A stretch of 64,000 bases of DNA from a virus: positions 1 through 64,000 of IMG/VR virus record IMGVR_UViG_3300037468_000493. One strand, given 5' to 3'. A model generated the notes under the pieces. It was not told where the DNA came from, ran no database searches, and worked only from the letters and a program-made list of their open reading frames with translations. Position 1 is the stretch's first letter, and every line of letters starts with the position of its first letter. Position numbers and translations under genes: made by a program. This document shows, piece after piece, positions 2,987 to 39,777 of this stretch.

Positions 2987-3034
2987 CTACCCCCCACACA
3001 CAGCGCCTTGCCCGGTTCGCTACCGGGCCTAACC

Positions 3035-3313
3035 ATGCCTACCCCATCCCGCAATGTGCTTAGCTTATCGCTGAGCACAGAAGATCAAACCTTGCTGGTT
3101 GATGTCCTGGCCGAGGCTGGGTTCAGCAAGCCCACCCAGTTTTTGAGGAGTGTCGCCCGTCGCCAGATTGCGATCGGCCCTCCCAATAATGCAGGGTTGC
3201 AGCGGCAGATTAGCGCCCTGGCTGAGCAAGTTGAGATGCAGTCCAACGCCATCGATGAGCTACGCTGCCATGCTGCAGGGCAACCCCCGCGATCGCCCAC
3301 GGATCTACCATGA
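3035..3313 (+). CDS. Ribbon-helix-helix-like regulator with coiled coil, coupled to csf1
   Basis: VLSLSLSTEDQTLL...AGFSKPTQFLRSVARR; ATGA overlap with csf1; likely start ATG 3035. Confidence 0.55.
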   Translation: MPTPSRNVLSLSLSTEDQTLLVDVLAEAGFSKPTQFLRSVARRQIAIGPPNNAGLQRQISALAEQVEMQSNAIDELRCHAAGQPPRSPTDLP

Positions 3314-3975
3314 ACACACCTCAATTATTGTACGCATCTCCCCCCGCTGAAGGTGCGGCGGACGGCCATTGCTCAGTCTGTGGATGGCATGGGCCGACCT
3401 ATGCCAAGGCTCAGGTATTTAGCAAAAGTACCGGGGCCGTGTCGGTGCTGGCGACGGTGCCAACTGATCGCATCTGCGTCCATTGCGCTGCACTGTGGGG
3501 AGAACCTAAAGTTTTTGCCCGTGCAGTACTGGCCACACCGGAAGCAGTACTGTTCCCGACTATCGCCCCCGACCCAGCAGGGCAACGGCCCACCTGGGGG
3601 CAAGCGCTAGCCGCCCTAGACCCTACACGGCCTCGGGTGTGCATCCTCACCACTGACCCCAAAAAACGGGTATGGCCCTTTGCTCAGGTAAGCCAGGGCG
3701 ATCGACTCAGCATGTACGTCCACGACCCTAGCCGGGGCATCTCAGGCAATCGCGTAGTGAGCCTGTCGCTATTGCTGACTACGATCGCTGGTATTGAAGC
3801 CATCTACAATCTAGGTTTTAGCAAAACCGCCATTGAGCGGGGGTTGCTGGATGATTTAAAGCGCGCCAAAGCACTAGGCATCCCCGACACCGTTGCCCAT
3901 GAAAGATACTTGCAAAGTGTCCGTATACTCCCTGAATTTTTGACTTCCCTAATAGTCGCTCAAAAGGATCCCTAG
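3310..3975 (+). CDS. csf1: Type IV CRISPR-associated Csf1 (Cas8-like large subunit)
   Basis: CSVCG and CVHC zinc pairs, KKRVW motif, GFSKTAIERG motif; position in operon. Confidence 0.85.
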   Translation: MNTPQLLYASPPAEGAADGHCSVCGWHGPTYAKAQVFSKSTGAVSVLATVPTDRICVHCAALWGEPKVFARAVLATPEAVLFPTIAPDPAGQRPTWGQALAALDPTRPRVCILTTDPKKRVWPFAQVSQGDRLSMYVHDPSRGISGNRVVSLSLLLTTIAGIEAIYNLGFSKTAIERGLLDDLKRAKALGIPDTVAHERYLQSVRILPEFLTSLIVAQKDP

Positions 3976-3977
3976 TT

Positions 3978-5396
3978 ATGCCTGATCGCATTTTGCTCAA
4001 GCTCACTGCCCTAACCCCTGTAGCCCATGGTGAGGCCGGGGCCAACAGTACGGGGCCGAATAACACGACCCTCTTTAATCGCCAACTCCAGCGGCTCACT
4101 AAAGAAACAGTGGGGGTGGACGTGGAGGTCGCCAGAGACGCCATTGCAAACCTACTGACGGCCATGCCTATCGGTGCCGATACCTTTCCCCTGCTGGAGT
4201 CGCTGAAAGGATCTGAATTGGTGGCAGCTCTATTTGTGGCCCAGGTGCCAATCATGTTCCCCGGAGACGGTGAGGGGCTATTTACTGGAATGGAGCGCTA
4301 CCGAATGTTAAGCACCCGTTTAGCCGATGGGGCCAAGTGCTGCGCCACGTTGCCTGAGTTGTGGAGCTACCTTAGCCGGAAGCTAATGCTCCCCATGTTT
4401 CCCTCTTACGGGTTTGAGGTAATGCGGGCGTTTTTCGTCCTCCCCAAGGCCATTCAGGGGCAATCAATTCAGGCCATTAGCAAAGCCCTGGAACTTACGG
4501 TAATGGCCGCTCGGATGCTGGCAGAGAGCATCAAGGCCGAGCGCAAAAGTGCTAAAGACAATAATCCCAGCCTGTTTGCCGCGCAGGTCTACCAGGCCAG
4601 CCCTGAACAGTTAGCCGACCTCACCCGACCCAAGGCTGAGGCGATCGTAATGCCCGTCCCGAGTATTAGTGGTAACGCCCTGAGACACTGCCTAATCCGT
4701 GAACCCGGCGCAAATCGGCTGATTCAATCCCTAGGACTGGAACCCTACACCGACCGCGATGGGGATCACCTGGGCTTAGGCATCACTCGATTTTTGTACG
4801 GCGGTGGGCAGCTTGCCGCTAAAGCCAAAGCACCCAGCGCCAGTGACATTTACGAAGCCGAGGTTCGCAGCCGTTACCCCATTGTTGATGCCGTGGGTGG
4901 TAGCACTGATTCCTGGTTGATGGCCGAAAGCGCCTGCAAGGTCGCCGGATGGGTAGTCTGCGCAGAAAACAATGTGGCTACCCAATCGATCGCCGGGGTT
5001 GAGTCGAAGGTGAGCATTTTCGATTACCTCAGTGAAGAAACCAAGACCAGAACCGGCATTGGTGGCAAGGACAAAGAATCAGGGCAAATGATTTTCTCTT
5101 ACGAAACCCTAGCCGCTGGGCTACCCCTGATTGTTGAGGTATTGTTCAATCCCTTCACCCAACCCCTGACCATTGGCGCTGTGTGGCAAGCGGTGCATGA
5201 CTGGGCCAATGAAGGAGGCATCGTTGGGGGCCGTTCCCAGATTGGCCATAGCCGATTTGCGTTGGAGGTATTGCAAGGTGCATACGGGCTGGAAGGCAAA
5301 GCCTACCTTGATTACCTAGAGACAGAGCGTGATAATCTACGCCCTGGCTTACTCGATGCCACGATGGGGACTGGGGCAGTGCTATGTGCGGCTTGA
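3978..5396 (+). CDS. csf2: Type IV CRISPR-associated Csf2 (Cas7) with a large helical Cas11-like insertion
   Basis: N-terminal LTALTPVAHG...TLFNRQ; VPSISGNALRH; LYGGG; QMIFSYETLAAG; Gly-rich VGGRSQIGHS loop. At 472 aa it is longer than a typical Csf2. Confidence 0.85.
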   Translation: MPDRILLKLTALTPVAHGEAGANSTGPNNTTLFNRQLQRLTKETVGVDVEVARDAIANLLTAMPIGADTFPLLESLKGSELVAALFVAQVPIMFPGDGEGLFTGMERYRMLSTRLADGAKCCATLPELWSYLSRKLMLPMFPSYGFEVMRAFFVLPKAIQGQSIQAISKALELTVMAARMLAESIKAERKSAKDNNPSLFAAQVYQASPEQLADLTRPKAEAIVMPVPSISGNALRHCLIREPGANRLIQSLGLEPYTDRDGDHLGLGITRFLYGGGQLAAKAKAPSASDIYEAEVRSRYPIVDAVGGSTDSWLMAESACKVAGWVVCAENNVATQSIAGVESKVSIFDYLSEETKTRTGIGGKDKESGQMIFSYETLAAGLPLIVEVLFNPFTQPLTIGAVWQAVHDWANEGGIVGGRSQIGHSRFALEVLQGAYGLEGKAYLDYLETERDNLRPGLLDATMGTGAVLCAA

Positions 5397-6079
5397 TTCA
5401 TAGCCCACGGTTTCGGACTGGTGACCTTGAAGCATGGCGGCGGTTGGAATTAGCAGACCGCCTCTATGCCCAGCGATACCGGGCCAAACTACAGCGCATG
5501 GCCGATGAAGCACAGGCAACCATCGCTGCATTCCTAGAGGATGGCCCCGCCTATTGTTCGGTAAGTTGGGGCAAGGATTCTGTAGTGGTGGCTGACCTTT
5601 GCCGGGGGATGGATTTGCCCATGGGCTACATCAGGATTACGCCCTTCAACAATCCCGACTGTGATTTAGTGCGAGATGCCTTTGCCCCTGAGCACTACCA
5701 CGAGGCGATCGTAGTGCGGCCCGATGATGAAGAATGCTCTCACAGTAGCGGCGTTTTTGATGAAGGCGGGAAACTGCTAGAGGCTGAGTTCGACACCGAT
5801 CGCAGAATCACCGGAATCAGAAAAGATGAATCGCAGTCTAGGCGACTCAGGGGCAGTGCCAACACTAAGCGCAGTTGCGTCCCCATTGCCAAGTGGAGCA
5901 CTCAGGATGTTTTTGCCTATCTTGCACTTCACAATCTGCCCATCCATCCTGCCTACGCAATGAGCAACGGGGGGCAATTCCATCGCAATAATCTACGGGT
6001 TGCGTCAATCGGTGGGGTTCGTGGAACCCAATTTAATCGCCGCGAATGGGAAAACCTTTACTACCCAGAAATCCTATGA
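5384..6079 (+). CDS. cysH: CysH/PAPS-reductase-family protein of type IV-B systems
   Basis: PP-loop SVSWGKDS, GIRKDESQSRR, PIAKWSTQDVFAYL...LPIHPAY. Confidence 0.88.
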   Translation: MCGLIHSPRFRTGDLEAWRRLELADRLYAQRYRAKLQRMADEAQATIAAFLEDGPAYCSVSWGKDSVVVADLCRGMDLPMGYIRITPFNNPDCDLVRDAFAPEHYHEAIVVRPDDEECSHSSGVFDEGGKLLEAEFDTDRRITGIRKDESQSRRLRGSANTKRSCVPIAKWSTQDVFAYLALHNLPIHPAYAMSNGGQFHRNNLRVASIGGVRGTQFNRREWENLYYPEIL

Positions 6080-6771
6080 AAATCATCCACATCCCCGAAC
6101 TAGACGCTATGGGCACTCGCTTTGCATCCCTACCCATGGCCCCATTTTGCCTTACCCTACGCACCCTAAAGCCAGTAGCGGGCAACGACGCTTTGCACCT
6201 AGACGGTCTACTAGCTAAAGCGGTGGTGATTGAGGCCATGCGAGGCAAACCACTGGCCCCGACCGAGGATGCCTATTACATGCCCTTGCCATTGGGGCTA
6301 GAGCGGTTGCACCTGGGCTTACCCGTTTGGCAGTGCAATGATTTTGCCGCCGTTGACGCTGCCGTAGGCCATACCCATTATCACCAGCGCAGCGACTCCA
6401 ACCCTTACGACCCAGCCGCAACCGTAGCCACATTACCCCAGAAGAAACGCCGTAGAATGCCACCCACGACCGAAGGGCAATACATGAGCTACCGTGTCCC
6501 CTTGCAGTACACCGAGGCCGATTGCTGGCAATGCGAAGCCGTGGGCAATGCCGATGAGGTGCTGCGGCTGCTGAATGAGTACATCTCTTCTGTAGGCAAG
6601 AAAGGTAGCCATGGATGGGGGCGTGTATTGTCGTGGGCGGTTGAATCAATCAATCAATTTGAACTTTCGCGCCCAGTCCCCACTGCTGATACCTCACGGC
6701 CCTTCAATGCTCAGATCATGGGGTGGACGCCGCCCTATTGGCATCGCGGTCTATGGCGACTTTGCGGCTAG
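6076..6771 (+). CDS. csf3: Type IV CRISPR-associated Csf3 (Cas5)
   Basis: LHLDGLLA, PLPL, GQYMSYRVP, VGKKGSHGWGRV Gly-rich loop, RPVP, PPYW; ATGA overlap with the cysH stop. Confidence 0.85.
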   Translation: MKIIHIPELDAMGTRFASLPMAPFCLTLRTLKPVAGNDALHLDGLLAKAVVIEAMRGKPLAPTEDAYYMPLPLGLERLHLGLPVWQCNDFAAVDAAVGHTHYHQRSDSNPYDPAATVATLPQKKRRRMPPTTEGQYMSYRVPLQYTEADCWQCEAVGNADEVLRLLNEYISSVGKKGSHGWGRVLSWAVESINQFELSRPVPTADTSRPFNAQIMGWTPPYWHRGLWRLCG

Positions 6772-6834
6772 CCCACGGATCGCCCCTAGCCCTGCCCTAG
6801 TTGACTTACTTGTGGCTAAATGCAATATTCAATT

Positions 6835-6953
6835 TAGGCAGAGCCTCTGAGGTTCCCGTAGGGAGCCGACACTTCTACTTTGCAGGGTTCCCCTAGCCCC
6901 ACCCCAACAGAAAGCCCCTGATCCAGCGATGGATCAGGGGCTTTCTGTTGGGG
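6835..6953 (+). ncRNA. Candidate small structured RNA downstream of csf3
   Basis: Putative promoter TTGACT(6801)...CAATATT(6823-6829); hairpins AGGCagaGCCT and GGTTCCCgtaGGGAGCC; ends in a 24-bp stem. Confidence 0.4.
6902..6953. terminator. Perfect 24-bp inverted repeat (bidirectional terminator)
   Basis: CCCCAACAGAAAGCCCCTGATCCA-gcga-TGGATCAGGGGCTTTCTGTTGGGG. Confidence 0.75.
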
Positions 6954-7038
6954 ATATCCGGCTACTCGCTCAGCCACGTCCTGAGCAGGGCAACGGCTTC
7001 GGCTACCGTAGCGCCACTATGGTTACCGAGGGTGGGGG

Positions 7039-35757: not shown

Positions 35758-36056
35758 CCCCTATCTGGCGAGTCCGGCAAATGGTATCGACGCTGATTGA
35801 GCAAGACGAACTAAAGGCCAGGGCTGGCAGCTATGCGATCGCCCGATTTGCCCTGACTCAAATCAGCCGCAAGGGCACCAAGATATCCATTGAAGACTTC
35901 ATGCCCTACAGCGATCCCAACGCCGCGCAGAAGCAGGGTGAAGGTATCCCGGCAAAGACCGTGGCAATCATGCGGCAATTGGTCAAGGGGCGAGCGTTAC
36001 CAGCACGGGTGGAGGCGGCAGCAATACGGGCATTAGGAGGAATGGGCGATGGCTGA
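35619..36056 (+). CDS. Tail assembly chaperone GT frameshift extension
   Basis: FSRAQRILSECRTACDREREFWDKCYFRIQSAG...MVSTLIEQ...DFMPY. Confidence 0.7.
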   Translation, partial: FSRAQRILSECRTACDREREFWDKCYFRIQSAGVQDPCYHWQEIGLTPIWRVRQMVSTLIEQDELKARAGSYAIARFALTQISRKGTKISIEDFMPYSDPNAAQKQGEGIPAKTVAIMRQLVKGRALPARVEAAAIRALGGMGDG

Positions 36057-39000
36057 CTTAGGAGAATTAGTCCTCAGGCTTAGGGTTGATGACAGTCAGT
36101 ACGCCCGAGACCTACTCAGGGCCAAGGCCCAGGCTGCTGCGCTCAAAGATATCCGGGTTGGCCTCCGGGTTGACAATAGCCAGTACACCCGAGACCTACT
36201 CAAAGCCAGGGCAGAAGCTCAGTCGCTCAAAGATATCCGGGTTGGTCTACAGCTTGACAGCAGCCAATACACCCGCGACTTACTCAGCGCCAGGGCACAG
36301 GCTGAAGCGCTCAAAGATATCCGGGTTAATCTCCGGGCTGATGGACTGGGGGGCGTTGATGCTGGCCTACAGAGAGTCGGAACCAGTACCCGTGATGTGA
36401 GGACATCGTTCTCTGTCTTGCAGGGGGCGATCCAGGGCGCAGCCCAGGCCATCACCCAAAGCCTGATTCAGATCGGCGGGTCATTGCTAAAGCTCCCTCT
36501 CAACATTGTGGGTGGGTCGCTTAACAGCTTTGCAGAATTAGAGACAGAGTTGGTAAACTTAGGCGCAAAGACTACCCTGGGCAGAGAGGGCATACAACCC
36601 ATCGCTGATGAAATCCAGAGGCTTGGCCAAGAATCAACAAAAACATCAGTAGAAGTCGCCCAGGCCGCAAATACTTTATCTCAGCTAGGCGTAGCGCCTG
36701 ATGAGATTCAAAAGCAACTTGCAGGGGTGGTGAAACTATCTGAAGCTACAGGGGCAGGCTTGGTGGAGGCCGCTAAGCTTAGTACAGGTGCCGCTAAGAC
36801 TTTTGGATTTTCAGCTGACGAAATCGCCGATCGATTGGCATCTTTAGCTATTGACACCGCTGCGGATGTTGGAGACGTTCAACAGCTTTTACAACAAACT
36901 AGCGGTATTTTTAATCAGTTAGGAGATTCAGCAGATCCCGACGAACTATTAGCTTTTTTTGCTACACTCATCGATGCAAACATAAACCCAGAAGTGGCGG
37001 CTACAGGTTTAAGGTCAGTAATTGAAACATTAGTAGACCCCAAAAAAGCTGACGAATTAAAAGAGCTAGGAGTTGACGCATTCGACGCAACAGGAAATTT
37101 CCTAGGGTTTGACACTGTACTCAGGCAATTGGCAGCAACGCAAAAAACCTTGAACCCTCAAGATTTCACAGGTAAACTTCTTAGCGCTTTTGGGGCTGGA
37201 GGTATTTCAGCAATTACAGGAGGACTAGGCGGTTTAGATAAAAACTTTAATAAAACACTTGATGGACTAGAAAACTCTACTGGCAAAACTGATGTAATTA
37301 AAGAAGAGCTACAAAAAGGACTTCCAGCCGCTATAGAACAATTTGGCGGATCCCTGAACACGCTTGATGTTGCATTTGGCGCATCAATCGCCCCCATTCA
37401 AGAAGGGATATTACGACTAGGGACAACGTTGCTTAATACCTTAAGCAAGTCCGACATTTTTGATCAGCTTACTACCGCGTCAAATGGTTTCTTTAAGGCA
37501 CTGCAAAGCAATGAAGGGTTTGTTGCAGAGCTAGGCAAAACCCTCGTTTCCACATTTGGATCAGTCCTTAACGCCATTGCATCCGTCGTCACTCGAATCA
37601 CAAACGAATTTATAGCTAACCCTGAAGAGATCCTGGCCCGTGTTCAAGGTTTTGTGACTCAAGCTGGAGTCGTGATCACCAACGCCATTCTTGGGGCCGG
37701 TGCTGCCTTTCAGTTTATCGTCCAAAACTTTGATGAAATCGTCGCCGGGGTGCAGGCCCTGGGGGTTGTCATTGCCGCCGCGCTGGCAGGCAATGTCATT
37801 GCCGGGGTAGTCTCGTTTGGGGCGACCCTAGTCAGCATTGCCTCCACCGTCCTCCCGGTTGTCATCGGCGCATTTACCGCGCTATCAGGCACCGTCTCCG
37901 GGCTACTGCTGGCATTCCAGGCGGGGGGCATCGCCGGGGTAGTGTCTAGCCTTGGCGCTACCTTCTCCCTGTTCGCGGCATCGTTGGCCCCGCTACTGCC
38001 CATCATTGCCGCCGTGGCTGGGGCGATCGCATTAATCGTCGTCGCGTTCAAGGCATTGCGGTCGGAGCGGGGCCAGGAAGTTCTAAGTGCGATCGGGGCC
38101 ACGGCCAAAGAATTGTTTGACTCATTCCGCAATAGTGAACCCGTGAAGGCGTTCTTAAATCTGCTGGATTCAATCAGGGATCTGGGAGTTGCGCTCATCC
38201 CAGTTATCCAAAATGTAGTCGGGGAAATGATTCGATTTGGCGGCGTTGGGATTGAAAATATAAAGTCAGCTTTTGCCTCAACGGGAATTAGCGTCAATGA
38301 TATTTATAAAACATTTTTACTCTTAAATCCTGTTTTTGCCGGTGCAATTGCCCTTTCCAAAACATTGCTTTCAATCGTTACTGACATTCTCAATCAGACC
38401 GCCACTGTCATTGACAACCTCACCGCTGCTATCAGTGGGCCGAAGACACTTGAAGTATCAGGAGTCGATGGGCTAGGCGACTCGCTGAGGGAGGGGGCCA
38501 ATGCTCTAGGGACAGCAGGGAAAAACATAGCGGATGTCGCCAAGCCCCCCGCAGCAACCCCCGCAGCAACCCCCGCAGAACCTCCCGCTGGCCCCACCCG
38601 TGACCTTGCTGCTGAGCAAAAAGCTGCCGCCGATGCCCTTGCCGCTGCTGAGCAAAAAGCTGCCGCCGATGCCCTTGCCGCTGCTGAGAAAAAGGCCGAG
38701 GACGACAAGAACGCCCGACAGACCGCCTTTGACAATGCCCGCATTGCCCGTGACATCGCCGCCGAAGATGCCAAACTAGCCCGTCAACAAGCCTTCGAGG
38801 ATACCAAACGCGCCAATGCCCTTGCCTTAGAATCTGAGATTGAAAGCCGCAAGATAGCGACCGAGCAGGCGATCGAGGCCATCAAAGAAGAGGGCCGCCG
38901 CCGGGAGGAAGAATTTAACGCCCGCCAAAATGCTGACAAGCTAGCCTTCGAGGATGACCTGGCTAAGCGTAAAAACGCCGCTGAGCGCCAGTTTGCCCTA

Positions 39001-39777
39001 GACGAAGCTGAAACACTGGACGAGCGGAACAAGCTGGTTGAGGGCTTCGCCGCCGAAGATCGCAAGGCCGCTGTTCTGGCCCCCTTCGAGCAAGAACAGC
39101 GAGACTTTGAGGCACAGCAGTTAGAAGATAAGCGCATCTTTGAAGAACAGCAACGCGCCCTTGATGCCGAAGCTGAAGAACTTAAGCGCCAGTCTGAGCT
39201 AGAAATCAACGCCCTCAACCTTGAAGCCAAAAATCAAGAGATTGCCCTAGAGCGTGACTTCCAAAACAATGAACGCACCCTTGATCGCCAAGCCAAAGAA
39301 CAGGAGCGGGCTAGGGAGGCATCTTTTAACGCCACCGAGCGCAGGCTAGATGAAGAATCTGCCCGAAGGATTGAGGCGCTCAAGTCCGGCAACGACGCCG
39401 CCGCCGTCACTGCCTTCCGTCGGGGTGGCACCTTCGCCGCTGGCCAAAACATTCTCGCTGGGGAGGCTGGCCCAGAACTGCTCAAAGTCGGCGGTAAGCA
39501 AGCCCTGGTCACCGAACCCAGCCTCATGCGCTTTGACTCCCCTGGCCGCGTCACTTCCGCACCCTCCACCCGGCGCAAGCTATCCCAGGGGCAACTAGCC
39601 AGGGCAGGGGCTGGGGGTGAGCTCAAGGCCATGCGCAAGGCTCTGGAGCGATCGCTAGCTAGGCCCCCCGCCGACATCAACACCACAGTCCAGGTGCAAG
39701 GGCTCAGTGCCGATCAGGTACGGCGACAATTGGCTATGCACCAGTCCGACTTATACCGCAGCCTAGGGGGCCTCTGA
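36049..39777 (+). CDS. Tape measure protein
   Basis: 1242 aa; MADLGELVLRL; TP901-like core (IQRLGQESTKTSVEVAQA, AATGLRSV..L..P); coiled coil; AGEAGPEL. Confidence 0.92.
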   Translation: MADLGELVLRLRVDDSQYARDLLRAKAQAAALKDIRVGLRVDNSQYTRDLLKARAEAQSLKDIRVGLQLDSSQYTRDLLSARAQAEALKDIRVNLRADGLGGVDAGLQRVGTSTRDVRTSFSVLQGAIQGAAQAITQSLIQIGGSLLKLPLNIVGGSLNSFAELETELVNLGAKTTLGREGIQPIADEIQRLGQESTKTSVEVAQAANTLSQLGVAPDEIQKQLAGVVKLSEATGAGLVEAAKLSTGAAKTFGFSADEIADRLASLAIDTAADVGDVQQLLQQTSGIFNQLGDSADPDELLAFFATLIDANINPEVAATGLRSVIETLVDPKKADELKELGVDAFDATGNFLGFDTVLRQLAATQKTLNPQDFTGKLLSAFGAGGISAITGGLGGLDKNFNKTLDGLENSTGKTDVIKEELQKGLPAAIEQFGGSLNTLDVAFGASIAPIQEGILRLGTTLLNTLSKSDIFDQLTTASNGFFKALQSNEGFVAELGKTLVSTFGSVLNAIASVVTRITNEFIANPEEILARVQGFVTQAGVVITNAILGAGAAFQFIVQNFDEIVAGVQALGVVIAAALAGNVIAGVVSFGATLVSIASTVLPVVIGAFTALSGTVSGLLLAFQAGGIAGVVSSLGATFSLFAASLAPLLPIIAAVAGAIALIVVAFKALRSERGQEVLSAIGATAKELFDSFRNSEPVKAFLNLLDSIRDLGVALIPVIQNVVGEMIRFGGVGIENIKSAFASTGISVNDIYKTFLLLNPVFAGAIALSKTLLSIVTDILNQTATVIDNLTAAISGPKTLEVSGVDGLGDSLREGANALGTAGKNIADVAKPPAATPAATPAEPPAGPTRDLAAEQKAAADALAAAEQKAAADALAAAEKKAEDDKNARQTAFDNARIARDIAAEDAKLARQQAFEDTKRANALALESEIESRKIATEQAIEAIKEEGRRREEEFNARQNADKLAFEDDLAKRKNAAERQFALDEAETLDERNKLVEGFAAEDRKAAVLAPFEQEQRDFEAQQLEDKRIFEEQQRALDAEAEELKRQSELEINALNLEAKNQEIALERDFQNNERTLDRQAKEQERAREASFNATERRLDEESARRIEALKSGNDAAAVTAFRRGGTFAAGQNILAGEAGPELLKVGGKQALVTEPSLMRFDSPGRVTSAPSTRRKLSQGQLARAGAGGELKAMRKALERSLARPPADINTTVQVQGLSADQVRRQLAMHQSDLYRSLGGL

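Follow-up and report, generated by a model that had tools for sequence, protein, structure and literature searches.

A phage-borne type IV-B CRISPR-Cas operon with a Cas11 homologue inside the Csf2 backbone subunit

The window analyzed here, the first 64,000 nucleotides of a 79.7-kb virus record, contains an array-less type IV-B operon in which csf1, csf2, a cysH-like gene, and csf3 adjoin or overlap one another on the + strand (3310-6771). The record codes for a major head protein, a portal, and a large terminase, and the host of the operon is a tailed phage. The genes of the operon, and the segments into which csf2 can be divided, are as follows.

3310-3975, + strand: csf1, Cas8-like large subunit of 221 aa with a Cys-rich N-terminus
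3978-5396, + strand: csf2, Cas7 backbone subunit of 472 aa with an internal Cas11 domain, stop codon counted in
3978-4109, + strand (aa 1-44): N-terminal Cas7 segment of Csf2, with strand 1, a Gly-rich loop carrying the conserved H17-G18-E19, and the first strand of a hairpin
4110-4631, + strand (aa 45-218): inserted Cas11-like helical domain, the part folded alone and matched to the Cas11 of 7jhy
4191-4568, + strand (aa 72-197): Cas11 homology core, the extent of the HMM match, with the motif GDGEGLFTGMERYRMLSTRL and then AARMLAESIK
4632-5393, + strand (aa 219-472): Cas7 core, with the return strand of the hairpin, the SGNALRH helix, and the remaining RAMP fold
5384-6079, + strand: cysH-like gene, 231 aa, the signature accessory gene of subtype IV-B
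6046-6771, + strand: csf3, Cas5-like subunit with a called length of 241 aa, the real start of which may be further in

The genes flanking csf2 were assigned by profile. csf1 matched the PADLOC model typeIV_Cas8 (2e-7) and, far under the curated cut-off, cas8u_csf1 of NCBIfam (0.018), while csf3 matched typeIV_Cas5 (4.8e-28) and, also under the curated cut-off, cas5_csf3 (2.3e-10). The cysH-like product exceeded the cut-off of Pfam PAPS_reduct (2e-10). The presence of csf1, csf2, and csf3 with a cysH-like gene within one operon is that of subtype IV-B, but a separate cas11 gene is missing, which sets the locus apart as a variant. No array-like repeats and no match to Pfam Cas1, Cas6, or Helicase_C_2 (the family of DinG-type helicases) were found in the 79.7-kb record, which CheckV estimates to be 69% complete, and the phage collection, searched by blastn with the operon as query, gave no match. 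The sole periodic repeat recovered from the record by a CRISPR-style scan is an 84-nt unit in three tandem copies (36083-36334) within an ORF of 1242 aa (36049-39777); with a length divisible by three, this unit would be translated into a protein repeat of 28 residues and would not mark an array. Two further features border the operon. An ORF of 101 aa (3008-3313, + strand) overlaps the start of csf1 and is kept 5' of csf1 in the related locus L007 (E 1.6e-54); it had no family match in Pfam, NCBIfam, or PADLOC and may be a regulator of the operon. Directly 3' of csf3 lies an intergenic stretch (6801-7030), a possible small RNA or mini-array, that may bear on the RNA that an array-less complex might load.

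Csf2 is a type IV Cas7, with a RAMP/Cas7 core and a type IV signature, and it has the 472 aa that the first-pass annotation gave for it. PADLOC typeIV_Cas7 (2.6e-24) matched aa 222-455 only, equivalent to profile positions 40-272 of 280, so that the first ~40 positions correspond to aa 1-36 and the segment in between has no Cas7 counterpart. Type IV-A Cas7 (5e-8) and the Csf2 of 7jhy (1.5e-4) were the top Foldseek matches of the protein, and a profile of the long Csf2 relatives (A1) found 7jhy Csf2 in the PDB at 1.9e-10; Csf2 as a whole did not match the Csf2 models of Pfam or NCBIfam. The N-terminal Cas7 segment, which contains strands 4-11 and 33-44 in the model, aligns to the N-termini of short Csf2 proteins. 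When aligned with short type IV Csf2, the insert appears as an all-or-none segment (aa ~37-222) between LTALTPVAHG...LFNRQ, within the N-terminal ~36 residues, and the VPSISGNALRH helix. This segment measures 5-8 residues in complete short proteins and 140-200 in long ones, a bimodal distribution whose few intermediate values belong to sequences without the N- or C-terminal part. The first-pass annotation had supposed that the two flanks normally lie close together and had proposed such an alignment as a check, and typical Csf2 proteins do lack the insert. Its description of the insert needed only adjustment: the segment is all-helical as stated, although the figure of ~150 residues was a slight underestimate of ~175 (aa 45-218), and the proposed interval, 4098-4560 (aa 41-194), covers most of a domain that is better placed at 4110-4631, with the HMM match at 4191-4568.

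In the AlphaFold2 model of the whole protein (pLDDT 80), two long strands (33-44 and 219-230) enclose an all-helical domain (49-216), which would locate the insert at the tip of the beta-hairpin that joins strand 1 to the SGNxLRH helix; the placement of the domain is uncertain, with a pTM of 0.65 for whole Csf2 vs 0.91 for the insert alone. The connection between strand 1 and helix 1 bears, in Csm3 and Csf2, a loop facing the target strand. The phage protein holds a conserved triplet (4026-4034): throughout alignment A1, which gathers its close long Csf2 relatives, H17 and G18 do not vary, and residue 19 is either Glu or Asp. It falls in a low-confidence Gly-rich loop past strand 1 of the AlphaFold2 model, in the region where Csm3 and the Mycobacterium Csf2 bear a catalytic or putative catalytic Asp.

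Folded alone from an alignment of 131 rows, the insert (aa 45-218) gave a model of nine helices (pLDDT 94.7, pTM 0.91) and is thus an autonomous domain; the structures of both Csf2 and the insert are predictions. We compared the insert model with solved structures, as the first-pass annotation had suggested doing against type IV-B Cas11, and Cas11 was the top match. Foldseek returned 7jhy_g first (prob 0.92, rmsd 4.0 A, with a weak E of 0.29), all other listed matches having an rmsd >11 A, and VIA-align over the Foldseek candidates gave this chain a Z of 10.1, the runner-up scoring 5.4. In an all-against-all pass over 48,161 representative PDB chains, 7jhy_h (Csf4/Cas11) was the only one to reach a Z of at least 5 (Z 10.1, rmsd 3.7 A, 128/143 residues; runner-up 4.8), with weak echoes from Cas10d (6thh, Z 3.2) and Cas8c (8dej, Z 3.1). 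According to the note that accompanies the tool, helical bundles can reach ~13 through a common arrangement alone, which is above the 10.1 found here, and a Z of 10 is by itself not decisive for a fold of this kind. However, the authors of 7JHY describe the helix arrangement of type IV Cas11 as different from that of other small subunits (PMC7937560), which makes a unique top match more telling, and the predicted domain has the type IV-specific bundle of the solved structure. Foldseek also found three small viral proteins in BFVD similar to the model of the insert (A0A0N7CBP1, A0A8S5MXU3, and A0A510E872; 137-155 aa; prob 1.00, TM 0.5-0.6). One of them carries the name "Dehydroquinase class II", and all three may be unannotated or misnamed phage Cas11.

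The sequence evidence comes from free Cas11 proteins encoded in viral contigs with a short csf2. These loci form two sets, L016-L030 (n=15, Cas11 set A3) and the sister clade L031-L043 (n=13, set A6), and all of them carry an ORF of 130-190 aa between csf1 and csf2 (15/15 and 13/13). PADLOC typeIV_Cas11 identified 14/15 of the A3 ORFs, down to 1e-67, and 11/13 of the A6 ORFs (best 4.8e-8), and the A6 profile found the Cas11 chain 7jhy_h in the PDB at E 1.9e-4. Aligned with the long-Csf2 profile, A6 reached a probability of 99.88% and an E of 2.9e-32 (hhalign), with the motif DGxGLFxGxxRYxxLxxR ... W ... AR......K common to the free proteins and the insert. Four basic residues (R107, R114, R179, and K186) are invariant or nearly so when free Cas11 and the phage insert are aligned together, and nearly invariant among the long Csf2 proteins. 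It is thus via the sister-clade free Cas11 that the insert shows profile homology to type IV Cas11. Without this bridge the link would be moderate at the sequence level: A3 aligned co-linearly over the whole insert at hhalign probabilities of 56-85% (E 1e-4 to 6e-6), and its score of 39.5 (85%, E 5.7e-6) compares with 11.3 for the reversed insert and <=25.3 for 40 block shuffles. An HMM of this more distant A3 set missed both the 7JHY Cas11 in the PDB and the insert in the phage genome. The published PADLOC Cas11 profiles do not match the insert directly, so a search with standard profiles would report no Cas11 for this locus, and as a single-sequence query against PADLOC and the PDB the insert gave no useful match.

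The phage has no other Cas11. Just 2 nt separate the end of csf1 (3975) from the start of csf2 (3978), leaving no room for a cas11 gene, and an HMM of the free A6 proteins, run against the six-frame translation of the whole 79.7-kb record, gave a single match (4191-4568, + strand, E 8.7e-16, HMM positions 4-128 of 144). This match lies inside csf2, so the only Cas11 homologue of the phage is within that gene: instead of a free small protein encoded between csf1 and csf2, there is a domain embedded at aa 45-218. The same alternation holds across loci. Where the gene context of a long csf2 could be seen, csf1 was followed directly by it with no separate cas11 (14/14), while the small ORF occupied the cas11 position in every short-form locus (28/28, 15 + 13), making the insert and the free gene strictly complementary over these 14 and 28 loci. 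Considering structure, sequence, gene context, and the absence of the segment from typical Csf2, the insert is truly homologous to the Cas11 of type IV-B. The first-pass annotation was therefore right in seeing no separate cas11 and in reading the insert as the IV-B small subunit turned internal domain.

The long form is widespread. A scan of 1.84 billion representatives recovered 263 relatives at E <= 0.001, and about 100 of the 150 listed among these 263 are proteins of 430-545 aa matched over their full length, insert included; this count refers to clusters at 50% identity from many sources. We looked up the public naming of long Csf2 relatives and found nothing beyond "hypothetical protein". 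Four cluster representatives of the long form (P0055, P0112, P0155, and P0157) start inside or just before the Cas11 domain, without the N-terminal Cas7 strand; either their starts were miscalled or they may be genuine fusions with Cas11 at the N-terminus of Cas7. In a midpoint-rooted maximum-likelihood tree of the Cas7 core, from which the insert columns had been taken out, a single branch separates the 100 long forms from the rest, so that one change of state suffices; the support for this branch is weak (SH-aLRT 67). Their nearest short relatives are the 14 short forms of the A4/A6 clade. The clade nearest in Cas7 is thus also the one whose Cas11 is nearest to the insert, which fits a single in-place fusion of the cognate neighboring cas11, and the insertion probably arose once, from that gene. 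The fusion would be the derived state, given the midpoint rooting and the free Cas11 of IV-C and type III. As to selection, the phage and L007, whose Csf2 proteins are 94% identical, gave a dN/dS of 0.054 over the insert, compared with 0.060 over the C-terminal core; the insert is under purifying selection as strong as that on the Cas7 core.

The cysH-like gene varies in position and sequence. The order csf2-cysH-csf3 occurs in the phage, L004, and L007, and in L002 and L005 cysH also precedes csf3, after a gap of ~2-3 kb; the long-form loci L001, L008, L009, and L011-L014 have csf2-csf3-cysH. In L007, with its 94% identical Csf2, the CysH in the same slot (L007:7407-8108) is just 31% identical to that of the phage, and the phage CysH (5384-6079) is 45% identical to the CysH of the distant short-form locus L022 (L022:10809-11546). 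Judged by these comparisons, the gene looks like an exchangeable cassette.

Canonical IV-B loci are arranged as csf1-cas11-csf2-csf3 plus a cysH-like gene (Pinilla-Redondo et al. 2020, PMC7038947; Taylor et al. 2021, PMC8175902). The phage operon resembles them in having all the effector families and the cysH-like signature gene, in lying on a mobile element, and in lacking an array, cas6, cas1, and a DinG-type helicase; it differs in that cas11 is not separate and that cysH stands between csf2 and csf3. In the solved IV-B complex, 7JHY, six Csf2 form the RNA-binding backbone and five Cas11 a second filament on the Csf2-Csf2 interfaces (PMC7937560). The Cas11 of this complex (Csf4 of Mycobacterium sp. 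JS623, chains g-k; Zhou et al. 2021, PMC7937560) has the same helical fold as the insert, to which it is linked by homology through the sister-clade Cas11, and comes from the same kind of operon (csf1, csf2, csf3, and cysH-like), although the two are ~12% identical in the structural alignment. It is a free protein of 162 aa whose gene lies between csf1 and csf2, present in five copies per six Csf2, whereas that of the phage is inside Csf2. The first-pass annotation had considered a forced 1:1 Cas7:Cas11 stoichiometry to be the unusual feature, but this ratio is close to normal (6:5 in IV-B, and 7 Cas7 to 6 Cas11 in the IV-C complex, PMC13676074). The solved 6:5 complex shows that the stoichiometry argument was overstated, although the architecture is indeed unusual: what is new is that one subunit is inserted covalently within the other, and not the ratio of the two.

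Covalent Cas7-Cas11 proteins are also found in type III, as III-E Cas7-11/gRAMP, III-Dv, and III-I Cas7-11i (PMC12669027, PMC11026444). Those fusions string several Cas7 end to end with one Cas11 into a single-protein effector of fixed length, whereas the phage Csf2 has one Cas11 inside one Cas7 fold and is still a repeating protomer alongside Csf1 and Csf3. With one Cas7 core per protein, and with csf1 and csf3 kept, the phage system is not a single-protein effector of the Cas7-11 type. In types I-C and I-D, Cas11 lies within or is fused to the large subunit, as a C-terminal Cas11-like domain of Cas8 or Cas10d. As in the phage, the small subunit there has no gene of its own, but it is the large subunit and not the backbone that hosts it, and its fold differs from that of type IV Cas11. 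Among type IV systems, a fusion of Csf1 and Csf3 has been reported in IV-E. We found no description of a Cas11 inside Csf2 in the literature searched, which included PMC8175902, PMC7937560, PMC7038947, PMC12669027, and PMC13676074 and had many subscription papers outside its scope.

It seems very likely that the small-subunit gene was relocated into csf2 as a complete Cas11 domain and that Csf2 protomers would build both filaments in cis. On this model, cas11, normally between csf1 and csf2, would have moved into csf2 as an independently folding domain of ~175 aa. Each Csf2 protomer polymerizing on RNA would bring its own Cas11 domain, on a two-stranded arm between strand 1 and helix 1, and on the side away from the RNA-binding palm these domains would form the minor ("belly") filament in cis, like the free Cas11 of 7JHY. 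The domain would thus act as the small subunit in cis, and the four conserved basic residues would keep their role from the free to the fused form. Polymerization would then build both filaments together, with n Cas11 per n Cas7 and not n-1; loss of the small subunit would be impossible, and its supply could not hold back assembly.

A domain of Cas11 descent might alternatively have ceased to be a small subunit and serve, for example, to dock the CysH-like enzyme or Csf1, or to cover the bound RNA like a lid in a complex that takes up no target strand. The solved IV-B complex bound heterogeneous RNA (PMC7937560), which leaves room for such a change of function, as do the linkers gained at the ends of the insert (an N-terminal helix absent from the sister-clade free Cas11 and ~20 C-terminal residues) and the free exchange of the cysH partner between near-identical phages. 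However, the entire Cas11 fold is kept, the residues conserved in free Cas11 are retained in the fused form, the four basic positions included, and a free cas11 has been regained in 0 of 14 long-form loci, so that we regard repurposing as unlikely.

A lower probability still attaches to the two readings that deny the insert its Cas11 ancestry or csf2 its integrity. The insert could be a helical outgrowth of Cas7 with no kinship to Cas11, comparable to the "fingers" of type I Cas7, its likeness to Cas11 coming from helical bundles alone; bundles do give middling Z scores by chance, the Foldseek E was 0.29, and no PADLOC Cas11 profile matched directly. We find this highly improbable in view of the hhalign (E 2.9e-32) and HMM (E 8.7e-16) links to proteins that are Cas11 by PADLOC, PDB match, and gene position, of the far lower scores of the reversed and shuffled controls, and of the strict complementarity of insert and free cas11; profile homology and this complementarity come near to refuting a fingers domain of the type I kind. 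That long csf2 is an assembly or gene-calling artefact merging neighbors can be practically dismissed: we found no point in its favor, the frame is open without stops, the same layout recurs in ~100 clusters (50% identity) from many sources, and dN/dS is 0.05. The order of the parts (Cas7 N-terminus, Cas11, and the rest of Cas7) is one that read-through cannot yield, and conservation over independent assemblies refutes both a read-through fusion and a miscalled gene.

Taking the relocation of cas11 into csf2 as the preferred reading, we lean, with some reserve, towards a broader one. Long Csf2 would define a large, unrecognized, mostly phage- and MGE-borne branch of IV-B whose protomer would be a self-contained two-layer block, a Cas7 with a Cas11 at its hairpin tip, and which would build both filaments at once on RNA without a free small subunit; the route by insertion would be independent of III-E/III-I, and the system a simpler one in which to study IV-B. 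No CRISPR-Cas subtype is less well understood than IV-B, which has neither array nor nuclease. That Cas11 stays under strong selection after the loss of the free gene suggests that the small subunit is indispensable to the role of IV-B. Current profile sets overlook the Cas11 domain in long-form loci, and the public records say only "hypothetical protein". The long-form loci offer a three-protein system (Csf1, Csf2, and Csf3) for structural and biochemical work, and they represent a second, mechanistically different covalent linkage of Cas7 and Cas11, which bears on the evolution of single-protein effectors such as Cas7-11.
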